Assembly: GCA_041916575.1 (NCBI GenBank)
Contig: JAYRZI010000002.1
Coordinates: 85,117 to 149,116, forward strand
DNA length: 64,000 bases
DNA from: Haliangiales bacterium
Lineage (GTDB): Bacteria > Myxococcota_A > Polyangia > Haliangiales > Haliangiaceae
Direction: 5' to 3'
The translations under genes and the position numbers were made by a program. This document shows, piece after piece, positions 5,504 through 63,583 of this stretch. Position 1 is the first letter of the stretch. Each line of letters opens with the position of its first letter. The notes below the pieces were generated by a model. That model was not told the DNA's origin, searched no databases, and saw nothing but the letters and a program-made list of their open reading frames with translations.

Positions 5504-7443
<1,940 letters not shown>

Positions 7444-7447
<4 letters not shown>

Positions 7448-9879
7448 GCTCGGTGCCCGCCGACCCGCGGCTGTGGATCTGCGTGCACGGTCACTACTAT
7501 CAACCGCCGCGCGAGAGCCCATGGCTCGACGAGATCGAGCCACAACCCAGCGCGGCGCCGTACCGCGACTGGAACGAGCGCATCACCGCCGAGTGCTATC
7601 GCCCCAACAGCGCGGCGCGCGTGCTCGACGAGCGCGGCCAGATCACGCAGATCTTCGACAACTACCAGCGCACGAGCTGGAACTTCGGCCCGACCCTGCT
7701 CACCTACCTGCAGCGCAACGCGCCGGATGTGCACGACGCCATCGTCGCCGCCGACAAGGCCAGCCGCGAGCGCTTCAGCGGCCACGGCTCGGCCATGGCG
7801 CAGGCGCACAGCCACCTCATCTTGCCGCTGTGCTCGCCGCGCGATCGCCGCACCCAGATCCGCTGGGGCGCCGCCGACTTCGAGCACCGGTTCGGGCGCC
7901 GACCCGAGGGCATGTGGCTGCCGGAGTGCGCGGTGGACGTGCCGACCCTCGAGGCGCTGGCCGACGAGGGCATCGGCTTCACCGTGCTGGCGCCGCGCCA
8001 GGCCCGCGCGTTTCGTCCGCCAGGCGGACAGTGGCAGGAAGGCGCGATCGATACCCGCCGCGGCTACCGCTGCCCGCTGCCCTCAGGGCGCTCGCTGGAC
8101 CTGTACTTCTATGATGGCGCGTTGGCGCAGTCGGTGGCGTTCGAGCACCTGCTGCGCGATGGCCGCGAGCTGGCGCGGCGGCTGGCCGCACTGCCGTCGC
8201 TGCCTGAGGGGGAGCCCTCGCTCTCGCACATCGCCACCGACGGCGAGAGCTACGGCCACCATCACCGCTTCGGCGAGATGGCGCTGGCTGCGGCGCTGGC
8301 CTCGATCGAGGCCGATCCTCGCCTGCGCCTCACCAACTACGCCGAGCTGCGCGCGCTGCACCCGCCGACCTGGGAGGTGCGCATCGTGGAGCCGAGCTCG
8401 TGGAGCTGCTACCACGGGGTCTCGCGCTGGACCGATGATTGCGGCTGCAACACGGGCGCGCCCGGCGTGCACCAGCGTTGGCGCCGTCCGCTGCGCGAGG
8501 CGCTCGACGTGCTGCGCGACAAGGTGCACGCCACCATCGAGCGCCTCGGCGCGGCGGTGTTCCTCGATCCATGGCGCGCCCGCGATGCCTACATCGCGGT
8601 GCTGCTCGGCGAAGGCTCGGCCAGCGCGCGCGCCGCGTTCTTCGCCTCCGAGCTGCGGCCCGAGGTGGCGAACGAGCCGGAGGTGCAGGGCCGAGCGTTG
8701 TCGATCATGGAGCTGGGCCGCGCGGCCATGCTCATGTACACGAGCTGTGGCTGGTTCTTCGATGACATCAGCGGCATCGAGACCGCGCAGATCCTGCGCT
8801 ACGCCGCGCGTGCGGTGGAGCTGCATCAGCGGCTCACCGGAGAAGATCTGGAGGCCGATCTAGTCGAGCGCCTGGCGCGAGCGCCGGGCAACCACCCCGA
8901 CCGGCCGCAGCTCGTCAGCGGTGCCGCAGTATGGCGTCATCAGGTCGTGAACCATCGCATCGATCTACCGCGCATCGCCCGCCACGTGGCGGTGGCGGCG
9001 GTGGTCACCGAGGAGTCCGAGGTGGTGCCCTACGGCACCCTCTGCGAGGTGGCCTCGCGGCGCGAGCTGCGCGCCGAGAAGGTGCAGCTCGTCAGCGGCA
9101 CCATCCGCCTGCGCGCGCGCTGGCTCGACGAGGGCTTCGAGATGAGCTTCGCCTGCCTGCGCCGCGGTAGCGAGGTGGTGGGCCGGCTCGGCTCTGCCGA
9201 GTCGCTGCACGCGCTGGTGCGCGAGCTCGGGCGCTGGCTCGACCGCCCGGATGCGGCGCTGGCCATGATGTCGGCGCACGCCGGCGCGGAGCTGGAGCTC
9301 GGGTGCCTCTTGCCGCTGGCCACGCGCTGGGTGGAGGAGGTGTTCGCGGCGCCGCTCGAGGATCTCGAGCGTACGGTGGACGAGCTCTACGAGCGGCACC
9401 TGGCGCTGGCGCAGTGGCTGGTCAAGCAGCAGGTGCCCTCGCCCGAGGCGCTGGCCCAGGTCATGCGGCTGGCGCTGCGTCGGCGCCTGGTCACGGCGCT
9501 GGCGGCCGAGCCGGTGGACGCGGCCACCGCCGAGAGTTGCCTCGATCTGGCCGGCCAGCTCGGCGTGTCGCTCGATACCCCGGCCATCGCGCTGGCGGCC
9601 TCGCGCGGGTTGGCGCGCGCGATCGAGGCTGCGGGGCGGGCTCGCGGCGAGCCCGCGCTGGTCGCGGAGTCGCTGGAGCGGGCGGCGCGCATCGCCGACA
9701 CCGTGGCGCGCATGCGCAGCCCGGTGGACTTGTGGCGGGCGCAGAACCTGGTGTTCCAGCTCGTGCACGGCGCGCAGCCATCGGCTGCGACCCAGGATAC
9801 GGCGCACAGCGAGCTGTGGCTCGCGCGGCTGGCTAGCTCTCTCGGCGTGGCGTTGCCCAAGGGCCGTCGTGGCGCTTGA
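7444..9879 (+). CDS. glycoside hydrolase family 57 protein with a C-terminal DUF3536-like extension
   Basis: N-terminus WICVHGHYYQPPRE and HLILPLCSPRD are typical of GH57 alpha-glucan enzymes. It is 811 aa. Its ATG overlaps the glgB stop (ATGA), suggesting translational coupling. Confidence 0.8.
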
Positions 9880-43411: not shown

Positions 43412-43734
43412 GAGGATGGCAGCGGAACGTTCTCATACCACGGCGATCGGGCAAAGGACCACAATCCGGCGCCAGCGCCGGCCAAGGAGCCACGGTGCCT
43501 CCCATTTCAGTCCAGATGCCAGCGCAGTTCGCGGAGTTGGAGCCGACCTTGCCGCTCCCCAACCTCGGCGCGCCAGGCTCGTTTTTGCCGGCGCCGGCGG
43601 CCCAGCGGAGAGCCTCGCGAGATCTCGGCGCGAGCTTGCCACCTCGTGAGCAACTGGACCTTTTTGCGCAGTCGGGGCAGGCTGCGCCCGCAGCGCCGGC
43701 CGTCCGGCCGGCGCCCGAAGTCGAGATTCGTACC

Positions 43735-46224
<2,490 letters not shown>

Positions 46225-48247: not shown

Positions 48248-48625
48248 CTAGCCGGGGAGGACTTGCAGCAGGAGCGGCGTGTACTTGGTCATGAGCGCGC
48301 GCGCAAATCCCAGCGTGCCCTGACGGCTCAGCGCCAGCCCGAGGTAGTGGTTGCGCCCGATCATGCGGATGAGGATATACGCGTTGGTCGTGGTGATGAG
48401 GATGTCCTCCGTGGAGTTGGCACCCACGCCGAGGAGATCCAGCGCGCGAGAGTTGGACTTCACCACCTCCGCGAAGCTCGCCGAGGCCATCGACGAATCG
48501 AAGTTCGGATCGATGGAACCTCCGGCAATCGACATGCCTGAATCGATCTCCACCAGGTCAGTGGAGATGAAGTGAGGGACCTCGGCGCGAAACCGATTGA
48601 TGACATCGAAGACGGTAGTGGACAT
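48248..48625 (-). CDS. Roadblock/LC7 domain protein
   Basis: 125 aa. The pattern FISTDLVEIDSGMSIAGGS…DSSMASASFAEVVKSNSRALDLLG…EDILITTTNAYILIRMIG…LGLALSRQGTLGFAR aligns by eye with the MglB/Roadblock fold. Gene GC is visibly lower than its surroundings. Confidence 0.6.
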   Translation of the reverse strand: MSTTVFDVINRFRAEVPHFISTDLVEIDSGMSIAGGSIDPNFDSSMASASFAEVVKSNSRALDLLGVGANSTEDILITTTNAYILIRMIGRNHYLGLALSRQGTLGFARALMTKYTPLLLQVLPG

Positions 48626-48696
48626 TGGCTACTTCCAGGGAAATGATGGCTCGGAGAGAGAGAGCGAACATAGCGCGAACCCAGCGCCAGGAGTCT

Positions 48697-49266
48697 CTAT
48701 CGTGTGGATTCTGTATCCACTCCTTTTCGGAGTACTCGACGCACCTGAGAGCACGTTGCACGTGAGAGTGGCTCTTCTCCCACTACACCCACCACGAGTC
48801 GACCAGCAGCAGTGTCCACTCGGATCACTTGTAGGAAACGGCTATCCGAGAGCTCGATGACCGTGCTGCGCTCGGCAGGAAGCGGGGTGCTGCGAAACGC
48901 TGCTTCTTCATTGTGAAGGACCGACGCAACCGCCTCGGCATAGGCCTCTGCGGCGTTGCGGTTGGCCAAGATCAGTCCATCGGCGTCGGCGACGAAGGCT
49001 GCCACCGCGGCAGCGCCACGGCTGAGCCAGGTCACGAACGCCTCGATGCGCTGCTGGAGCGAGGCGCCCTCTCGTCCGAAAATCTCGCGCAGGGCGTCTT
49101 CATCGCTGCCCAGCCCGCGAGGTTCTGGCGCAATCGCTGGTGCGGGGGACGGCTCGAAGCCGTCGCTCGGAAAGCGGATCGGCGGCAGCACAGTGACCGC
49201 CGTGGCGATCGCGCTGCCCCGCTTGCGAGGAGGGGCATCGTAGTCGATGCCGACACCCGCCAGCAT
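48697..49266 (-). CDS. hypothetical protein with a C-terminal Roadblock/LC7-like domain
   Basis: Start taken at MLAGVGIDYD…. A Pro-rich N-terminal half, then …GAAAVAAFVADADGLILANRN…AEAVASVL…VIELSDSRFLQVIRVDTAAGRLVVGVVG… which is Roadblock-like. Start uncertain; an alternative ATG at 49314 is possible. Confidence 0.4.
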   Translation of the reverse strand: MLAGVGIDYDAPPRKRGSAIATAVTVLPPIRFPSDGFEPSPAPAIAPEPRGLGSDEDALREIFGREGASLQQRIEAFVTWLSRGAAAVAAFVADADGLILANRNAAEAYAEAVASVLHNEEAAFRSTPLPAERSTVIELSDSRFLQVIRVDTAAGRLVVGVVGEEPLSRATCSQVRRVLRKGVDTESTR

Positions 49267-49285
49267 CGTGGAGAGAGTTGCGGGA

Positions 49286-50119
49286 TCAGGCAAAAAGGGA
49301 GAGAGGTTCTTCATCTCGCTCGCTTTCAGTGAGGGGATGCGGATCCATCTTGCGCCGGAGCTCCTGAGCCAGCCTGTCGAAGAGCGCGGCGATGGGAGTA
49401 GCTTTCTTGGAGAGCAGGCCGACTGGGACGCCCTGGGCAGAGGCCTCGAGGAAGATGGGATCTCTTGGCACCACCGTGTCGAAGACACTGTCCTCGGGGA
49501 GCTTGGACCACACCTCGCTCGCGACCGCCGAGGAGGTCTTGTTGCGGAGCTGAACCATGGTCAGCACCACCCCGGCGAGCTGCGCGCGGTTGCCTTCGCG
49601 GCGCAGCGCTGCCAGCATCTCGAGGAGCTGCGGAAACGAGCGCAGGGCGATCGGCTCGGCCTGGAGCGCATTGATCACCCAGTCGCAGACCCGCAGCGCG
49701 CCGAGCGTGATGCCGCCGAAGCCCGCGGGGGTATCGAGCAGCAGCACGTCGTAGCCCGCAGCCTCGGCGGCGCGCCGCAGACGCGTCAGCTCGGCGCCAT
49801 TGGCCAGGTGCATGGCGAGGCCGTGCGCGTCCTCGGTGGCGACGGGGCCGATGGGTAAGAGGGACAACCCGGGGAGCCGGGTATGCACGACCACCTGCTC
49901 GAGCGGTGCGCCCTGGCCGACGAACCCGGCCAGGCCCACGCCGCGAGCCTCGCGATCTTGGCCCGAGCGGCTGCGCAGGGATAGCCCGATGGCGCCCTGC
50001 GGGTCGGTGTCCACGAGCAGCACGCGATCGCCCGTGCTCGCGAGGGCATACGCTAGGTGCAGCGCGACGGTGGTCTTGCCCACGCCGCCTTTCTGCGACG
50101 CCACACACACGCACTTCAT
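49286..50119 (-). CDS. ParA/MinD-like P-loop ATPase
   Basis: Starts MKCVCVASQKGGVGKTTVALHLAYALA, the deviant Walker A KGGxGKT, then …VLLVDTDPQG… and …DVLLLDTPAGF…. Its ATG overlaps the stop of the upstream gene (ATGA). Confidence 0.8.
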   Translation of the reverse strand: MKCVCVASQKGGVGKTTVALHLAYALASTGDRVLLVDTDPQGAIGLSLRSRSGQDREARGVGLAGFVGQGAPLEQVVVHTRLPGLSLLPIGPVATEDAHGLAMHLANGAELTRLRRAAEAAGYDVLLLDTPAGFGGITLGALRVCDWVINALQAEPIALRSFPQLLEMLAALRREGNRAQLAGVVLTMVQLRNKTSSAVASEVWSKLPEDSVFDTVVPRDPIFLEASAQGVPVGLLSKKATPIAALFDRLAQELRRKMDPHPLTESERDEEPLSLFA

Positions 50120-51366
50120 CGCTGATCCTTTCGATCGCTGTTGCCGGCCGCGAGCCGCTGCTGGAGACGCTCCAGCGTGCGCCGCGCGGTGGGCTCGTCC
50201 GGGCACTCTTGCACGCAGAGCTGGAGCAGCTCTTTGGCACGCGCATCGTGCCCTTGCAGGTGCGCGCGCACCGCCTCTGCGACGTGCGCCGCATAGCGCG
50301 ACGGCCTCGGCTGTTCCACAGCCGGTGGCGGAGGCGCAGGCTTGTTTTCGGCGCGCGTCGGCGGCGGTAGGGTGCCAATCGGTAGCGTCTTGCTGCGCAC
50401 CTCGCTCACCGGCAGGTGCACCGCGCCGCCCGCTGGGGCCGGCGGGGCAGCCGCCGCGGGGGCCGCGGTCATCGGCGCGACGACCGCGGCTTCCTTTAGC
50501 ACCGGCGAGGGCTCCGGTGTCGGCGGCGGCACCAGCTTGAGCGTCGGGGTTGGCCGCGGCTCGGAGGCCGGCGGGCTGGACGCGCGGGGGGAGCGGTCCG
50601 CTCGGTCCAGCGCGCCGAGCCTCTTCTGTTCTCTTGGCTCTTGGGGCTCCGTGTGATCTGCCGGCGGCCTCAGCACGATCACCCGGCGGCGGCAAAGCTG
50701 CGCCAGCGCCCGGTGCGCTTGCAGCGCGCCGAGCCCGCAGCTCTGCAGGACGTCCTCGAGCGCGACGATGCCATCGATGAGCGGCACCAGCTCGCGCTCG
50801 TCTTCGGTGAGCGGCAGCTCCTCGATCAAGGCTTCGTCATAGGCCAGCGCGGGAATCTGGCTTAGGTCTCCAAGCTCGGTGCGATACTCCTTCAACAGGC
50901 GCTGCTTCACCACGCTGATGCTGCGTGAGATCGATGGATCGCGAGGCGCTTCGCCATGTGCGGTGTAGAGCAGCGCCAGCGCTTCCTCGAACTTGCGCTC
51001 GCGGATGAGCTCGACGGTGAGGGTCGACAGGGACTCCAGCGAGAGCGGCTCATCGGCCGTGCTCGCTCGCCCGCGGTCCTCTCTTCTCCCAGCGGACCGG
51101 TCGTCTTTGGTGCTGACTCTACCGACCGCGGGCCGCGCTGAGGTCGGTGGCGTCGCTGTGGCGCCGGGCTCAGCTCCTGACTCGCCGGGCTCCGGTGATG
51201 CACCAGCGGCTTCGAGGTACTCGAGCGCCAGATGATGCCCGGGCGACAGGTACAGAACTTCGCGCCAGCACTGAATGGCTTCGGCGACGAGCTGCCGGCC
51301 GTAGTAGTCCAAGCCCCTCTCGAGAAGCTCGTCTAGCCTTTGCCAATCGTTCATGGTGGGCTGCAT
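50116..51366 (-). CDS. hypothetical protein with N-terminal TPR-like helices and a Pro-rich C-terminal half
   Basis: Start MQPTMNDWQRLDELLERGLDYYGRQLVAEAIQCWREVLYLSPGHHLALEYLE. The C-terminus is Pro/Ala low complexity (…PRPTPTLKLVPPPTPEPSP…KPAPPPPAVEQP…). Translationally coupled to the ParA-like gene. Confidence 0.5.
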   Translation of the reverse strand: MQPTMNDWQRLDELLERGLDYYGRQLVAEAIQCWREVLYLSPGHHLALEYLEAAGASPEPGESGAEPGATATPPTSARPAVGRVSTKDDRSAGRREDRGRASTADEPLSLESLSTLTVELIRERKFEEALALLYTAHGEAPRDPSISRSISVVKQRLLKEYRTELGDLSQIPALAYDEALIEELPLTEDERELVPLIDGIVALEDVLQSCGLGALQAHRALAQLCRRRVIVLRPPADHTEPQEPREQKRLGALDRADRSPRASSPPASEPRPTPTLKLVPPPTPEPSPVLKEAAVVAPMTAAPAAAAPPAPAGGAVHLPVSEVRSKTLPIGTLPPPTRAENKPAPPPPAVEQPRPSRYAAHVAEAVRAHLQGHDARAKELLQLCVQECPDEPTARRTLERLQQRLAAGNSDRKDQR

Positions 51367-51764
51367 GGCATACGTCTTTTTCGGACGGTACTGCTGCGTT
51401 CCAGCGCGACGGGCTCCTTCGAAGTGCCCGGATGAGCCGCTCGCGGACGGCCCCGCCATCACACTCCAAAATTGCGTTGCCGTAAAGTGAAGAGATGATT
51501 TTGTCGCTGGGCAGTAGTGGTTTCTCGATCTGCGTCACTGCCTCTCTCAGCGGTCACGCAGCGTCGGATACCCACGTTGGCGCACCGAGGAGGAGATAGC
51601 CTCGGCATCGGTCTTGGTGGGAAGGTAAATTGTTCCGTACGCGCGAACGCCAATTCTGCGAAGCACGTCGGGGGAGAGCCGCATTGATGGATGATCGATC
51701 ACGATTGGTTGCGTGAGCGTGTCCTACAGCCACACTCGCGCGCTCACATATGGGCTGCGAACAC

Positions 51765-52772
51765 TTACGGTTGCTGGGGCGATGGATCGGTCAATGCGTC
51801 CGAATCCGACGCGCTCGAGTGGGCTGGCGCGGGCGCTGCGTTCGTGTTCGACGCAGGGTGGGCGTCTTCGCTGGTTTCCTTGGCTGGCTCGTTACCAATC
51901 GGTTCAGGGCCATCAGGAGCATCGCCGATCGGAGCGGGGGCAGGCTGTGCGACTTCCGGAGTGGAGGGCAGCGGTAGGCCAGCTTCCTGCGTGGCTGCGC
52001 GAAACGCCGCGGTCGAGAGCAGTCCGTCGCGGCGCAGCAGCGTGAGCAGCTTGGCTACCTTGCGCTGCATGGCGGCGCTGCGCCGGCGCGGCGTGCGCAC
52101 GAACGGATTGGGGAGCGCGACCGCCAGCCGTGCCGCCTGCACCGCGGTCAGCTTGCTCGCCGATCTGCCGAACCAGTGGCGCGCGGCAGCCTCTGCGCCG
52201 AACACTCCATCGCCCCACTCCGCCACGTTGAGGTACAGCTCGAGGATGCGCTGCTTGTCGAGCGCTTGCTCGAGGCGCGCGGTGATGAGCAGCTCTCGCA
52301 CTTTGCGCACTACGCTACGTGAGGGAGAGAGATAGAGGTTCTTGGCGAGCTGCTGCGTGATGGTGCTGCCGCCGATCGCCATCGTGCCGCGCTGGTAGTT
52401 GGATTCCACGGCGTTTTCGATGGCGCGCCAGTCCACCCCCTCGTGCTCGTAGAAGCGCGCGTCCTCGGCGTGGACCACGGCTGCGCGCAGCAGTGGGGAG
52501 ATTTGGTCGAGGCGGCGCCATTGCCACTGCAGGCGCAACGCGCGGCGCTGCTCTGCGGCCTGCTGGCGTCGGAGCTCGATGAAGGCGGTGGTGCTCGGGT
52601 TCTTGCGGGCCAGCGGTTCGGGGTCTGGGATCGAGGCCCAAAGCAGGGTCAGTGCGAGCGCGCCGAGCACCAGCGCGGCCTCGGCAGCGGCGGCGAGGGC
52701 CGCCAGCGCGCGGCGTGGGCGGCGTTTGGACGGGACCGGACGAGGGGCCGTGGCGGCGCGGCGAGACGCCAT
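51765..52772 (-). CDS. mtgA: monofunctional biosynthetic peptidoglycan transglycosylase
   Basis: GT51 motifs: …AVVHAEDARFYEHEGVDWRAI…GGSTITQQLAKNLYLS…RKVRELLITARLEQAL…RILELYLNVAEWG…. An N-terminal TM helix and a Pro-rich C-terminal tail. Confidence 0.8.
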   Translation of the reverse strand: MASRRAATAPRPVPSKRRPRRALAALAAAAEAALVLGALALTLLWASIPDPEPLARKNPSTTAFIELRRQQAAEQRRALRLQWQWRRLDQISPLLRAAVVHAEDARFYEHEGVDWRAIENAVESNYQRGTMAIGGSTITQQLAKNLYLSPSRSVVRKVRELLITARLEQALDKQRILELYLNVAEWGDGVFGAEAAARHWFGRSASKLTAVQAARLAVALPNPFVRTPRRRSAAMQRKVAKLLTLLRRDGLLSTAAFRAATQEAGLPLPSTPEVAQPAPAPIGDAPDGPEPIGNEPAKETSEDAHPASNTNAAPAPAHSSASDSDALTDPSPQQP

Positions 52773-52773
52773 G

Positions 52774-53525
52774 TCAGGCCTTGGGGAGCGGAGCCTGGCC
52801 ATCGCTGCCAAACACGGCCGCGACCGTGAGCGAGCGCGCCTGCGCGAAGGCTCGCTTGGCTGCTGCGTCATCGCCGCGCCCGGCCTCGGCTCGCCCCACG
52901 GTGTGCAGGGCCAGGGCGCGCTGCGCGGGGCCCAGGCGCACGTGCCGCGTCAGCGGGGTGAGCTTCGCGATGGCTTCAGCGGGCTCGCCGGCGGCCAGCA
53001 GCAGGCGGCCCTCGGTGAGCTGGGCCGGCAGGCTGCCGCCGGGGCCCAGCGCCGCGGCGCGCGGACGGATGTCCGCTTCGAACAGGGTGTGGGCCTCCGC
53101 GGTGCGCCCCAGCTCGCACAGCGCGCCGACGCGCAGGCAAGCGGCCGCCAGGCGCCACGAGGCTTTGCCTCCGCGCGCCAGCTCGCCGGTGCGCGCGGCC
53201 TCCGCATCTTCGGCGCAGCGAGTCCAGTCGCCCGCGAGCTCGTGGGCCATGGCGCGGTACACCAAGAACGGCGCCTGTCGGCCTTTGCCGCGGCGCGCGA
53301 GCTGTACCTCGATCAAGCGGTGCGCCAGCGCCGCGTCGCCGATCGCGAGCGCGCGGGTGATCTCGGCGTGAAAAGACATCTCTCGAAACAGCGCCCACAT
53401 CACCAGCACCATCGCCAGGCCCACCATGGCGGCGAGCGAGCCGGCCATGGACGCCTCGCTCGACCACACCAGCACGAGGAAGAGCACGGTCATGGCCGCC
53501 GGCACCGGCCAGCTCGTGAGCGCCT

Positions 53526-53529
<4 letters not shown>
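52774..53529 (-). CDS. hypothetical membrane protein with TPR-like C-terminal region
   Basis: Start MKALTSWPVPAAMTVLFLVLVW…; two TM helices followed by helical repeats. Confidence 0.45.
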
Positions 53530-54863
<1,334 letters not shown>

Positions 54864-59550: not shown

Positions 59551-59695
59551 GGGGCGGAGCTGGGCTGGGGCCGCTTGGGAGCGTCGAGAGCTGCCGCGCG
59601 CTGACGCTGCGGAAGTCCTCGTTTGCAAAACGAAAGTGGCGCGCGCCGAGGGCCGTGCGGTACCGTGCCCGCACGACCTTTCTTGGCGGGTGCCC

Positions 59696-60934
59696 ATGCT
59701 CACTCAGCTCTCGTTTCAGAACTATCGCACCTTCGAGCGGCCGGAGACGGTAGACCTTCGCCCGCTGACCGTGCTCATCGGGCGCAACAGCTCGGGTAAG
59801 AGCGCGATCGCCAGGTTACCCCTCTTGCTCGAGCGTGGCCTGTCGGGCAACGCCGAGGTGCCGTTGGCGCTCGAATTCGATGGTCACGACTTCGGCGCTT
59901 CGTTCGCGGATCTGGTGACCAACCGGCTGACCACCCGCGGGATCACGCTAGGGGTAAAAGGGCGCAGTGATGAGCACGACACGCCGTTCGAGTTGCGGGT
60001 CACCGTTGGGTACTGGCCCGAGTATCAGCTCCAGGCCATTCGCCAGTATCGATACTACTGGGAAGGCCAAGTCCGCTATGATCTCGAGTGGGATGGCGCC
60101 AGCGATCCCAACCAGCAGATGCTCTACCGTGATCACAAAAGCGGTCAGGTGCAGGAGCTCTCCTTCGCTGGCTTGATGCCGATCTTTACCAACATGATGG
60201 AGAGGGTCGATTTTCCGGTGGTTCGCTACCTCGGGCCGTTCCGCGACGCGCCGGCACGCGACGAGCGGATTCCGGAGGGCTCGACGTTCGAGGTCGGTCC
60301 ACGCGGTGGCAATGCCGCGCGGGTGCTGGCCAGCGACTGGATTCGTCGCGGGGGCAAGGTCCTGCAGCAGGTAGGGCAGTGGTACCGCGAACATCTGGGC
60401 GGGTGGCAGCTCGATCTGGAGCGCGATGGGCAGCGGTTTGCGGTGGTGCTGCGTTCGCCGCATGAACAGAGCGTCACGGTGAACCTGCGCGATGCAGGCG
60501 TCGGCCTCAGTCAGGTACTCCCCGTCGTCGTGCAGCATGAGCTGGACCGCGCCGGCGTTGCTCACGATCTCCTCCCCGGTGTGTCGACGCTCAACATCAT
60601 CGAGCAGCCGGAGCTGCATCTGCATCCCGGCGCTCATGGCGCGCTGGCAGACCTATACCTCGAGGCGATCGGTCGCGATGCCGGCCAGTTTCTCATCGAG
60701 ACTCACTCTGAGAACTTCCTCCTGCGCATCCGGCGCCGCATCGCAGAAGGGACCTTCTCGGCCGACGACGTTGCGCTCTACTGGGTCAACGACGATCTCG
60801 CCGCGACGCCGCGGGTTCGTCGCATCCACATCGATTCTCAGGGTGAGGTCGACTTTTGGCCGCGCGGCGTGTTCTCCGAGGATCTAGAGGAGGTCAAGGC
60901 CATTCGAGCGGCGCAGCGAGGGCGCGCGCCGTGA
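59696..60934 (+). CDS. ABC-type AAA family ATPase with a DUF3696-like C-terminal region (COG4938-like; OLD/AriA-like architecture)
   Basis: N-terminus [36 protein letters not shown] (Walker A). C-terminal …[26 protein letters not shown]…[21 protein letters not shown]…DDVALYWV gives an ABC D-loop/Walker B and an H-loop ETHS. Mostly α-helical between the two halves. Confidence 0.7.
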
Positions 60935-61911
60935 AGGTATCGCTCGATGTCTCGGTGACCGCCCGACCTGAGGAGCATGGCCACGATCTCGATGCGATCG
61001 TAAGGCGCTGCGAACTCGGGCAACACACTTGGCAGATCGACGACCTCGACGAGCTCCTCGCCTCGGAGTGGATGAAAGGCAAGGCCGCTTGGGACAAACA
61101 AGCTCGCTACGCAGAGAAGGTCTTCACGGACCTCATCTATGCGCCGCGGCGAACGGGGCTCTGGCTGTTGGTGACACAGGCCCCAGCTCCCGTTGGCTCC
61201 TCTACTCAGCGCTACTGTGTGCCCAAAGAGGCCCGGACGATCCTCGAAGAGCCCGCCTATCTGGTCGTCGAGAACAAGGGTTCCGATGGAGCGTTCTTGC
61301 GCGCTATCGCGCGTGTCTACTCTCGTGAGCGGGTCGTGCACGCGCTGGATCAGGGTTGGCTCGAGCCTGCGTCTGGCGGCGGCGGTGGTGAAGTGAAGAA
61401 GGAGGTACTACGCCTTCTCGGATCGCCGAACCCCGTTGCGCCCTGGAGGGTCATGGCCGTGCTCGATAGCGACCGGCTGATACCAGGGACGCTTCCCGAC
61501 AAGGTGAGCAAGCTGCAGCAAGAGCTGATGGGCTTGGGCGTCGCCGTGTGGGTACTCTTCAAACGCGAGATCGAGAACTACCTTCCGTACTCGCTGCTCG
61601 ATTCGCCGAGACGACACGAGGTCTACGTTTCTTTCATGCAATTGACGCGAGAACAACAGGACCACTACGACATGAAGGAGGGGTTTACGAAGAAGAAGGG
61701 CGCACAGGGCGTCGAAGTTCCTGCCGAGCAGGACCACCTCTTCAAGCAGGTCAGCGACTGGCATCGGACTCGGCTGCGCCGTGGTTTTGGCGACGACATT
61801 GGAAGCCGCTTCGGTCAGGCTTCGCTGGACCGCGAGGAGCTCGACACCGTATGCTCCTCCAACCCCGGGGAGCTAGAGCGCCTCCTCGATGCTCTCGAAT
61901 CGATCCTCTGA
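60931..61911 (+). CDS. Toprim-like (OLD / DUF4435 / DUF4276-like) putative nuclease
   Basis: GTG start overlaps the ATPase stop (GTGA). …AYLVVENKGSDGAFL… (Toprim Glu), about 60 aa, …VMAVLDSDRLIPG… (DxD), then …LFKREIENYLPYSLL…. Call made from motifs only. Confidence 0.45.
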   Translation: MKVSLDVSVTARPEEHGHDLDAIVRRCELGQHTWQIDDLDELLASEWMKGKAAWDKQARYAEKVFTDLIYAPRRTGLWLLVTQAPAPVGSSTQRYCVPKEARTILEEPAYLVVENKGSDGAFLRAIARVYSRERVVHALDQGWLEPASGGGGGEVKKEVLRLLGSPNPVAPWRVMAVLDSDRLIPGTLPDKVSKLQQELMGLGVAVWVLFKREIENYLPYSLLDSPRRHEVYVSFMQLTREQQDHYDMKEGFTKKKGAQGVEVPAEQDHLFKQVSDWHRTRLRRGFGDDIGSRFGQASLDREELDTVCSSNPGELERLLDALESIL

Positions 61912-61915
61912 GCCC

Positions 61916-63583
61916 ATGGCACAAGAATCTTCTGCCCCTGCCTTTGTCGTCAAGCCCGAGGTAGTCTTCCTCGAAGAGCTGTTCGAGGAGATCAAGCAAG
62001 GCAAGCTGCGCAGCCCGCGGTTCCAGCGTCCCTTCATCTGGGACGCCGAGGCCATGCGCAAGCTGTTCGAGAGCGTGGTGAAGGGCTATCCGATCGGCAG
62101 CCTACTCATTTGGGATCCTGGAGAGTATTACGAGTGCTTGCCTCACTTCGGGCCGATTGGACAAGAAGAGCCTGCCCGCGATCGCAAGGATCTGGCCTAC
62201 GTGCTGGACGGTCAGCACCGGCTGGCCACGCTCTATGGCGCGACTCATGTAGTTGGTGAACCGCCGGAGCAGTCCGAACTCAGGCGTTGGTGGATGTGGT
62301 ACGACCTCGACGAAGAGGAGTTCACTCATGCTCCGCGAGGCCACGTGGGGCCACATCATCTGCCGCTGCGCAGCATCTTGGGCACCACGGACTTCTTGCA
62401 ATTCTGCAGTCGGCTACTGAAGGAGCGGACTCGCGATGGCCAGGTGCTGGTCGGCCGCGCCGAGCGGCTGGCGCGCCTGATTCGTGGCTTCAAAGTGCCG
62501 GTGGTTCGAATTCGTGGTGGAGCGCTGGAGGACGCCAGCGAGATCTTCTCCCGGCTCAACTCATCTGGCAAGCCGATGGCCGCCGATCAACTCGTCTCGG
62601 CGTTGACCTATCGCGAAGGGCCGGGGGCCTTCGATCTGGCGGCGCGCATCAGCGAGATCTTGACCCAGCTCGGCGAGTTCCATTTTGCAGGAGTGGAGCG
62701 CTCTGCGGTGCTCCGTACTCTCGCGGGCACCGCCGGGATTCGCATTCACAGTAAACCGGGGACGCAGGTCGCGAACTTCTTGTTCAGCGAGAAGTTCACC
62801 CCCGCGAGTCGTGAAGAGCTGGTGGGAAAGACGCGCGATGGACTGGTGGCGGCGGCGCGGTGGCTATCGGTACGTTGTGGAGTGAAGTGCGATCACTTGC
62901 TGCCGTATGCCATGCAGCTCGTGCTGCTCTCGCAGTTCTGGTATCGACGTGCTCCCAGCGCCCACGAAGAGCAGGTGCTGCGCCGCTGGTTCTTCGCCAC
63001 CTCGTTCACCGGCTGGTTCGCCGGCGGCAACACCAAGCAGATCAATGATGATCTCGCGGATATGGGCCGCTTCGCGGAACATGGGCAGCAGAGCTTCCCG
63101 GTCTTCGATGAGCGAGCCAAACCGTTTCCTGAGCGCTTCGACTTGCGCGCGGCACGCGTGCGCGCGTTCCTTCTGGCGACGTTGATCCCGGCGCAGCCGT
63201 TGTATCGAGCGAGCCAGCCGGTAGACCTCGTGCCGATCTTCACCGATGACGATGCGGCGGTGGTGCCCAAGGTGTTCTCTCGACGCGAGGGCTCCGTCGC
63301 TGCCAGCTCACCGGCCAATCGAATCCTGTTGCCCAACCGTGATGGCAAAGGCGCGCGCCAGCAGCTCCTGGATTTGTCTGCAGACGAACAAGAAGTCGTG
63401 CTTCGCAGCCACTGCATCAATGACCTGGCTTTTCGCGCCCTGGAAGACGACGACCTGGAGGCGTTCGTGGCCGCCCGCACCATCTTCCTCATGGCCAGGG
63501 AGCGAGAGCTCTTTGCCGAGCTGCAGCTCGCGTTTCCGGATCGCGACGCCGAGGAGGCGGTGCCAGACGCCGGTGGCGGCTGA
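61916..63583 (+). CDS. DUF262 (ParB/Srx-like, GmrSD N-terminal type) domain protein
   Basis: …FQRPFIWDAEAMRKLFESVVKGYPIGSLLIW… and …YVLDGQHRLATL… are the DUF262 signatures. 555 aa. The C-terminal part shows no obvious H-N-H (DUF1524) motif. Starts 5 nt after the previous stop. Confidence 0.65.
   Translation: MAQESSAPAFVVKPEVVFLEELFEEIKQGKLRSPRFQRPFIWDAEAMRKLFESVVKGYPIGSLLIWDPGEYYECLPHFGPIGQEEPARDRKDLAYVLDGQHRLATLYGATHVVGEPPEQSELRRWWMWYDLDEEEFTHAPRGHVGPHHLPLRSILGTTDFLQFCSRLLKERTRDGQVLVGRAERLARLIRGFKVPVVRIRGGALEDASEIFSRLNSSGKPMAADQLVSALTYREGPGAFDLAARISEILTQLGEFHFAGVERSAVLRTLAGTAGIRIHSKPGTQVANFLFSEKFTPASREELVGKTRDGLVAAARWLSVRCGVKCDHLLPYAMQLVLLSQFWYRRAPSAHEEQVLRRWFFATSFTGWFAGGNTKQINDDLADMGRFAEHGQQSFPVFDERAKPFPERFDLRAARVRAFLLATLIPAQPLYRASQPVDLVPIFTDDDAAVVPKVFSRREGSVAASSPANRILLPNRDGKGARQQLLDLSADEQEVVLRSHCINDLAFRALEDDDLEAFVAARTIFLMARERELFAELQLAFPDRDAEEAVPDAGGG

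Follow-up and report, generated by a model that had tools for sequence, protein, structure and literature searches.

A conserved gene cluster of Myxococcota and Acidobacteriota that encodes a ParA/MinD-class ATPase together with two proteins of predicted Roadblock fold

ParA/MinD ATPases and Roadblock/small-GTPase pairs are the two main bacterial means of intracellular placement and polarity and are treated as separate toolkits. Here we describe a cluster of four genes, p1 to p4, which lies on the minus strand of a stretch of 64,000 nucleotides (nt) from a Haliangiales bacterium (GCA_041916575.1, contig JAYRZI010000002.1, positions 85,117-149,116; hereafter the window, within which coordinates are given) and codes for a TPR/Pro-rich protein, a ParA/MinD-class ATPase and two proteins of predicted Roadblock fold. 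The pairing of ParA with Roadblock proteins is real and conserved, and as a combination of the two toolkits it is apparently undescribed. The cluster has the following features (lengths of products in amino acids, aa).

50116-51366, minus strand: p1 (gene 1), 416 aa, TPR/Pro-rich protein
49286-50119, minus strand: p2 (gene 2), 277 aa, ParA/MinD-class P-loop ATPase of a distinct subfamily
48697-49314, minus strand: p3 (gene 3), 205 aa, N-terminal peptide, linker and Roadblock-fold domain
49255-49314, minus strand: residues 1-20 of p3, conserved N-terminal peptide MKNLSPFLPDPATLSTMLAG
49111-49254, minus strand: residues 21-68 of p3, variable Pro/Ala-rich linker, predicted to be disordered
48697-49110, minus strand: residues 69-205 of p3 and the stop codon, Roadblock-fold domain (predicted)
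48248-48625, minus strand: p4 (gene 4), 125 aa, single-domain Roadblock fold of the PATAN-associated, MglC-like type (predicted)
49286-49314, minus strand: p2/p3 overlap, 29 nt read in two frames (sequence inspection)
51367-51764, no strand assigned: presumed promoter region of the operon, 398-nt intergenic region between the stop of a transglycosylase gene (51765) and the ATG of p1 (51366)

The four co-directional open reading frames (ORFs) are present as the first-pass annotation of this DNA had described them, and the ATGA by which it had coupled the first two genes was read at 50116-50119, where it is common to the stop of p1 and the start of p2. The start of p3 (49314) lies 29 nt within the ParA gene, whose stop codon occupies 49286-49288; the last nine ParA codons and the stop serve, in the second frame, as the first 9-10 codons of p3. 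p3 and p4 are separated by 71 nt, and p4 ends 55 nt from the convergent parE. Scanning the 398-nt intergenic region with the sigma-70 consensus found no minus-strand site, and a scan with promoter and terminator consensus sequences left the coding strand of the cluster without a match.

p2 is a deviant Walker A ATPase, as first annotated. Its residues 10-17 read KGGVGKTT, in agreement with KGGxxGK[ST] and with the signature lysine, and it exceeds the Pfam cut-offs (in brackets) of AAA_31 with 87.7 bits (27), CbiA with 77.2 (25.4), CBP_BcsQ with 64.9 (21.3) and ParA with 44.2 (27.1). It stays far below every NCBIfam equivalog cut-off, BcsQ included (87.5 against 180 for ParA_partition, 47.7 against 212.9 for minD_bact). 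Soj/ParA (1wcv, E=1e-28) are the nearest solved structures. The protein ends in an acidic, Pro-containing tail (...ERDEEPLSLFA), and a tail of the form D-[DEG]-[GE]-P-x-x-[LF]-[LFV]-[AD] closes 119 of its 120 best homologues (46-96% identical). At E<=1e-30 there are 791 homologues. Myxococcus and its close relatives are absent from the named matches among the best of them, and this may be why the system has been overlooked.

In the N-terminal peptide of p3, M1, K2, L4-D10, T13 and L14 are at least 90% conserved in the family alignment (consensus MKxLSPFLPDxxTL...). Homologues from Acidobacteriota, Haliangium-type loci and Sandaracinaceae have a motif of the same type, S-[WPF]-[ILF]-x-[PD]...L..L[LF], as do many of the wider-family members that were sampled. 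The start chosen by NCBI, which gives a product of 189 aa (P0050), removes this peptide. The linker has a predicted local distance difference test (pLDDT) score below 50 at residues 25-64 and varies widely in length and sequence among homologues, except for an IRFP motif. The C-terminal domain of about 135 aa adopts a Roadblock topology in the structure model, with a pLDDT of 82-88 for most blocks of ten residues, falling to 61-63 at residues 121-150; MglB is its best structural match and GAF the next-best. By sequence, p3 reaches 11.6 bits (E=0.24) against Pfam Robl_LC7 (PF03259), below the gathering score of 23 bits. Among 1.84 billion proteins, the p3 family has 284 representatives (50% identity clusters, E<=1e-3). 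No member of the operon evolves faster than p3, and rates within the operon are very unequal: between the window and the related locus L010, identity is 97% for p4, 79% for ParA and 70% for the Roadblock domain of p3.

p4 has no match at E<=1 in Pfam or NCBIfam. Its AlphaFold2 model is of high quality (pLDDT 92.2, predicted template modelling score 0.85), and Foldseek places MglB first (6izw/6hjm, E=1.7e-9, template modelling (TM) score 0.86), followed by archaeal Roadblock proteins, LAMTOR and others, with MglC lower (TM 0.67). The sole match of a profile of 30 p4 homologues to the PDB is MglC (7ct3), and it is weak (E=7.5e-4, 22.7 bits, about 90 residues). Homologues are annotated by the Joint Genome Institute (JGI) as Roadblock/LC7/MglB. 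Identity to p4 is 93-97% in the three closest loci and 49-70% in the other 20 species-representative loci. Both the C-terminal domain of p3 and the whole of p4 match the alpha-beta-beta-alpha-beta-beta-beta Roadblock fold in these predictions. The hidden Markov model (HMM) searches and structure predictions that the first-pass annotation had recommended for its two Roadblock candidates therefore give sub-threshold or empty HMM results and a predicted Roadblock fold for each: the Roadblock-like C-terminus it had seen in p3 is borne out by the model, and its "small canonical Roadblock/LC7 protein", p4, keeps the fold while the word canonical has to go.

The two Roadblock genes were not taken for a recent tandem duplication, since the p3 and p4 families, compared profile against profile, showed no similarity (E=0.3). 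Orthology of p4 with MglC was not adopted either: the similarity is weak, p4 is not an orphan gene, and the MglC surface formed by F25, D26 and I28, which is required for MglB binding (PMC4719450), is not kept. The corresponding p4 residues are D28, S29 and M31 (x-S-G-M/L in the family), in an alignment extended by register, as F25 and D26 fall just outside the aligned block.

p1 has TPR-like helices at both termini, a helical middle domain and a Pro/Ala-rich linker of about 100 aa; its Pfam TPR matches are sub-threshold. The ATG at 51366 is supported by the homologues in loci L008 and L011, which align from residue 1. p1 is homologous to the protein encoded upstream of ParA in L004, L008, L011 and the Sandaracinaceae locus L035 (E=5e-24), and weakly resembles the non-PATAN part of proteins of the DUF4388+TPR type. 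DUF4388/PATAN itself was found neither by Pfam in p1 nor by tblastn of the window with PATAN proteins.

Conservation was surveyed by tblastn and profile searches over 38 loci (L001-L038), of which 23 species-representative loci served for a census of p4. The genomes closest to the window are metagenome-assembled Kofleriaceae-type Myxococcota. The full p1-ParA-p3-p4 set is present in L004, L005, L008, L011 and L033 (the last being the same DNA as the window), and in L010, beside ParA-p3-p4, p1 was detected only in its C-terminal part. Nine Thermoanaerobaculia/Acidobacteriota loci have ParA-p3-p4 without p1, so that ParA, p3 and p4 occur together in Kofleriaceae-type Myxococcota and in Thermoanaerobaculia/Acidobacteriota. 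The p3-domain profile matches the gene directly after ParA in 17 loci that contain the ParA gene or its 3' end (L004, L005, L008, L010, L011, L018, L020, L022, L024, L025, L026, L028-L030, L033-L035), as well as in L036 and L037; its only other matches in the loci are on two contigs (L009, L012) that stop short of ParA, where it picks out the gene immediately ahead of p4. In 17 loci of two phyla, the start of the gene after ParA precedes the ParA stop by 20-29 nt. The ParA-Roadblock-Roadblock arrangement is therefore not a chance neighbourhood; it is conserved across Myxococcota and Acidobacteriota. The synteny search proposed in the first-pass annotation has thus found the ParA-p3-p4 order kept in both phyla, and its view that a ParA gene with two Roadblock genes and no GTPase gene is unusual is strengthened by the two predicted folds, by the conserved order and overlap and by the lack of a literature description: in full-text literature of incomplete journal coverage, searches for a link of Roadblock proteins to ParA/MinD ATPases, for one with PATAN or V4R proteins and for a named operon all came back empty, and a search for PATAN with Roadblock returned only unrelated "roadblock" papers.

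The genes within about 8 kb of the cluster are all housekeeping: parC- and parE-type topoisomerase genes and genes for an M23 peptidase, a transglycosylase, a TPR protein, a class II DAHP synthase, a 5'-nucleotidase and NDK. No integrase, transposase or other mobile-element genes were seen around the cluster. A reading as a defence system was rejected, as the PADLOC matches to ParA are only generic P-loop ones. Two features of the flanking genes may be mentioned. The parC-type subunit (plus-strand ORF 43495-46224) has an N-terminal extension of about 160 aa ahead of its DNA_topoisoIV domain, and in this extension (GSSGSG)n is encoded by an 18-nt tandem repeat (43778-43871, 5.2 copies, 98% match). 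The transglycosylase gene (51765-52871) and the TPR-like gene upstream of it (52774-53664), each taken as the longest ORF, overlap by 98 nt (52774-52871), and one of the two starts was probably mis-set by the longest-ORF rule.

The guanine plus cytosine (GC) content of the window is 0.695, with a standard deviation of 0.038 in 500-nt windows. A real dip is located at about 48.2-49.1 kb, with the minimum of the whole window (0.578) at 48501; a second one (0.58-0.61) falls in the intergenic region upstream of p1. The drop over 48.2-49.4 kb reported in the first-pass annotation is thus real in part and does not extend to the cluster as a whole, p1 (0.695) and p2 (0.687) being average for the window. 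The many A/T-ending codons it had noticed belong to p3, whose GC content at third codon positions (GC3) is 0.67 (0.62 in the C-terminal domain) against 0.85-0.92 in neighbouring genes; p3 is the only gene of the cluster that is truly A/T-richer there. Its orthologues in L010 and L011 have a GC3 of 0.87-0.89, a level which the window p3 has lost. In p4 (GC 0.608) codon positions 1 and 2 are responsible, GC3 being 0.83, and p4 homologues are GC-low in every lineage compared because of their amino-acid composition. Elsewhere in the window, three consecutive plus-strand genes (59636-63583) have a GC3 of 0.73-0.78 and a GC content of 0.62-0.65, below the rest of the window, and several 500-nt windows between 59.7 and 62.4 kb fall below 0.61.

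Such a minimum, together with the low GC3 of p3, is what a recently acquired foreign island would offer as evidence, and the first-pass annotation had implied foreignness from it. We regard a foreign island, or a chance neighbourhood of genes without joint function, as scarcely credible. The composition of p1, ParA and p4 just described does not fit it, nor do the housekeeping flanks lacking integrase and transposase genes; in the relative L008, too, the cluster has the DAHP synthase and transglycosylase genes upstream of it. The gene order and overlaps conserved across phyla largely refute this explanation. The GC dip is local and is not the mark of a foreign island.

Related loci show which parts of the system can be exchanged. 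In L038 (6001-8353) a ParA of the same subfamily is followed by an overlapping gene for a 524-aa protein which has a p3-type N-terminal motif (MKGRSTSWFDRDELKALF), a Pro/Ala linker and two GAF domains and no Roadblock domain; a DDE transposase gene adjoins this pair. The exchange implies that the peptide and linker travel with ParA and that the globular domain is replaceable, and points to the peptide and linker as the putative ParA-linked part of p3.

The NTPase appears to be exchangeable as well. The operons in L016 (4893-7375) and L021 (4836-7384) encode an MglA-like GTPase (Pfam Arf, E=2e-8), a DUF4388+TPR protein, a helical protein of about 120 aa, a Robl_LC7 protein above the cut-off and, last, a homologue 57-64% identical to p4. 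Therefore the same Roadblock protein serves operons built around either kind of NTPase, and p4, judging by sequence and gene context, is a Roadblock protein of the PATAN-associated type and is paired with another Roadblock protein in Ras-like GTPase and ParA operons alike. The L016 record is titled "uncultured Enterobacteriaceae"; this label may be wrong, since the operon type was otherwise found here only in Myxococcota-labelled assemblies.

Other relatives of p4 are associated with signalling domains. H-NOX proteins are usually described beside kinases or cyclases. In Thermoanaerobaculia p4 is often fused to DUF4388 (E=1.7e-10 in L018) and followed by an H-NOX (HNOB, E=1e-33) protein. The HNOB gene (E about 1e-33) comes directly after p4 in L018 (7416-7955) and L022 (7371-8015), and homologues are present in L020, L024, L025, L026, L028 and L030. 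The Aminicenantes locus L032 encodes a 373-aa protein (6257-7378) in which a receiver, DUF4388/PATAN and a Roadblock domain of the p4 type are combined; 1.2 kb downstream lies a second p4 paralogue (8554-8946), an HNOB homologue is present and ParA was not found in the locus. Two p4 paralogues 2.5-3.5 kb apart, with neither ParA nor GTPase detected nearby, are found in the Polyangiaceae loci L001/L014 (3324-8390) and L017 (4167-7402); L001 has further small ORFs, one of which (146 aa) gives a weak Robl_LC7 match.

A second version of the ParA operon was found in four loci: one on a contig whose ParA is identical to the Haliangium ochraceum DSM 14365 protein, one in a Sandaracinaceae genome and two in other assemblies. 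There ParA and a p3-like gene are accompanied by a C-terminally extended second Roadblock protein and a V4R-like protein of about 416 aa. The Haliangium-type and Sandaracinaceae loci alone among the four have a protein of about 100 aa; the accessory gene is a REC+PatA_N response regulator in the former and a p1-like TPR gene in the latter. Searching the window by tblastn with accessory proteins of related operons (V4R, HNOB, PATAN, GTPase, the extended second Roadblock protein, the protein of about 100 aa) gave no match, and the window operon may accordingly be described as a reduced version of a wider system.

We consider it an evenly balanced proposition, drawn from sequence, that the four genes form one operon in which a ParA/MinD-class ATPase acts as a spatial switch with the two Roadblock proteins as its dedicated partners or regulators. 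p2 would form an ATP-dependent dimer, as the ParA family does. By analogy with MglB, MglC, LAMTOR and the Rag C-terminal domains, p3 and p4 may combine into a Roadblock platform, which could be a heterodimer or a dimer of dimers. The N-terminal peptide of p3 would contact the ATPase from its flexible Pro/Ala linker, a layout known from activating partners of ParA/MinD proteins, and the docked p3/p4 platform would set the nucleotide state or the location of ParA. p1 could be a scaffold or cargo adaptor. The output is likely to be spatial, i.e., cell polarity, motility control or the positioning of a structure, and in related versions PATAN, receiver and H-NOX/V4R sensor proteins would be added as inputs. 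The data themselves show how the genes are built and coupled, the predicted folds, the conserved linkage and the domain swaps; the physical contacts, any effect on ATP hydrolysis and the cellular output are what we infer here.

The closest parallel for the ATPase side comes from ParA/MinD proteins and their activating partners (ParB, MinE, ParG, PomX/PomY-PomZ), with which the window operon shares the deviant Walker A ATPase and the adjacent partner gene. These activators are modular and carry an N-terminal peptide that is short and has a positive charge (ParB, MinE, ParG, PomX), followed in PomX by an Ala/Pro-rich region (PMC7993993). p3 resembles PomX in having a conserved peptide at the extreme N-terminus, a Pro/Ala-rich unstructured stretch and then a structured domain, which in PomX is self-associating. 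Its domain is Roadblock (GAF in L038) and so differs from those of ParB, MinE, ParG, PomX and the further candidates considered in PMC7993993; a second Roadblock protein is added, and PomX-, PomY-, MinC-, MinE- or ParB-like neighbours are absent. The comparison with PomZ made in the first-pass annotation holds only as an analogy because PomX- and PomY-like partners are not present: no coiled-coil or HEAT partner was seen, the peptide/linker/domain layout is there, and p3 has one Lys or Arg in its first 25 residues (1-5 in relatives). p2 further differs from MinD in scoring below the minD_bact cut-off, in lacking MinC/MinE neighbours and in ending with an acidic tail rather than an amphipathic membrane-targeting helix.

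An ordinary DNA or cargo partition system should be weighed at this point. In such a system ParA would be the motor and p3 a non-canonical ParB-like adaptor to a centromere or cargo, with Roadblock serving only for dimerisation. The proximity of p2 to Soj/ParA among solved structures agrees with this, as does the small-adaptor layout of p3 (peptide, linker, dimeric domain), which recalls type Ib partition systems and PomX. However, Pfam and NCBIfam revealed neither a helix-turn-helix or ribbon-helix-helix nor any other kind of DNA-binding domain in p1, p3 and p4, and in contrast to ParABS the proteins encoded downstream have the predicted Roadblock fold and p2 remains below the ParA_partition cut-off. 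The setting is chromosomal and housekeeping, and the accessory genes of relatives code for signalling proteins (PATAN, REC, HNOB/V4R). A partition function is therefore improbable in our opinion.

On the Roadblock side, MglA/MglB of Myxococcus xanthus (with MglC and RomR) is the nearest known system. In both cases the genes for Roadblock proteins adjoin the gene for the NTPase that is their presumed target, the predicted structures of p3 and p4 are nearest to MglB, and p4 has both its profile match to MglC and its close homologues in MglA-like GTPase operons. The differences are that the NTPase here belongs to the ParA/MinD class, which dimerises on ATP, and not to the Ras-like GTPases; that mglA is not linked in the window; that p3 has an N-terminal peptide and linker which MglB and MglC lack; and that p3 and p4 are below the Robl_LC7 cut-off. 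That two distinct Roadblock proteins can cooperate is seen from MglB, MglC and RomR (PMC4719450). As summarised in PMC4316618, genome-context surveys (Makarova et al., 2006) linked PATAN (PatA N-terminal, DUF4388) with MglB/MglA, with ParA unmentioned in that summary. The p4-type domains fused to DUF4388 (Thermoanaerobaculia) or REC+DUF4388 (Aminicenantes) resemble such PATAN-associated MglB homologues, and in Myxococcota p4-type genes adjoin those for DUF4388+TPR or REC+DUF4388 proteins, whereas the window has no Pfam-detected PATAN domain.

These similarities permit the opposite assignment, in which p3 and p4 belong to an MglA-type GTPase polarity module encoded elsewhere in the genome, p4 being MglC- or MglB-like, and ParA is co-expressed or acts downstream without being regulated by them. 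Among solved structures, MglC is what the p4 family matches best by sequence, close p4 homologues do share operons with an MglA-like GTPase and a Robl_LC7 protein, ParA is missing from about half of the p4-family loci, and M. xanthus MglC sets a precedent as an orphan MglB paralogue acting on the MglA module from an unlinked locus (PMC4719450). On the other hand, in two phyla the only position at which p3 was found is right behind a ParA gene of this subfamily, with its start overlapping that gene, and the F25, D26 and I28 surface of MglC is not kept in p4 in the register-extended alignment. A GTPase gene is likewise missing from the neighbourhood, as the first-pass annotation had stated: when the 64-kb window was searched by tblastn with approximate MglA and MglB sequences as probes, the best E was 2.6, and none was seen in the flanks of ParA-type loci. 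We think an unlinked MglA module unlikely.

Returning to the Roadblock proteins as partners of ParA, we propose, tentatively and with a confidence somewhat short of even, that they are cognate regulators of the ParA/MinD-class ATPase, serving as a docking platform and as an activator or inhibitor of hydrolysis. They would make the operon an ATPase counterpart of MglA/MglB and Rag/Ragulator, which may have arisen by a swap of the NTPase within a conserved cassette of a Roadblock pair, PATAN/TPR and H-NOX/V4R. The V4R fold family is linked with the TRAPP subunit TRAPPC3/Bet3. Actinobacterial conservons (CvnA-D), the eukaryotic Ragulator-Rag and TRAPP likewise combine a Roadblock- or longin-type platform for an NTPase with sensor input, a likeness of parts list only; all of them act on Ras-superfamily GTPases, and no sequence relationship beyond the fold was found. 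Some related operons add a V4R-type protein as in TRAPP, while the window has no V4R/HNOB gene.

Several observations weigh against the Roadblock pair as the dedicated partners or regulators of ParA. The peptide of p3 is hydrophobic/aromatic with acidic residues or Pro, unlike the positively charged peptides of ParB, MinE, ParG and PomX. Its first 7-10 codons share nucleotides with the conserved ParA tail, leaving only residues 10-20 or so outside the overlap, and the conservation of the shared stretch can therefore be assigned to neither frame. p4-type proteins are found without ParA, alone or beside a GTPase, in 11 of the 23 species-representative loci, so p4 may act mainly on something else. 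The sensor genes that suggest signalling in relatives were not found in the window by tblastn.

Overall, the window system works like MglA/MglB and like a ParA with its activating partner and is a member of neither. As a conserved operon joining both toolkits, it offers a candidate for a new class of ParA partner proteins, and the occurrence of one Roadblock protein with either ParA or an MglA-like GTPase is a natural experiment on the reuse of a regulator between unrelated NTPases. The related operons suggest that sensors of gases or small molecules (H-NOX, V4R) and PATAN response regulators may feed into spatial control. The ParA-identical locus in the cultured Haliangium ochraceum DSM 14365 makes the system experimentally accessible. 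If our interpretation is true, the old idea that Roadblock proteins regulate NTPases in general would come to include a second P-loop class, and ParA would have a partner of a new type.

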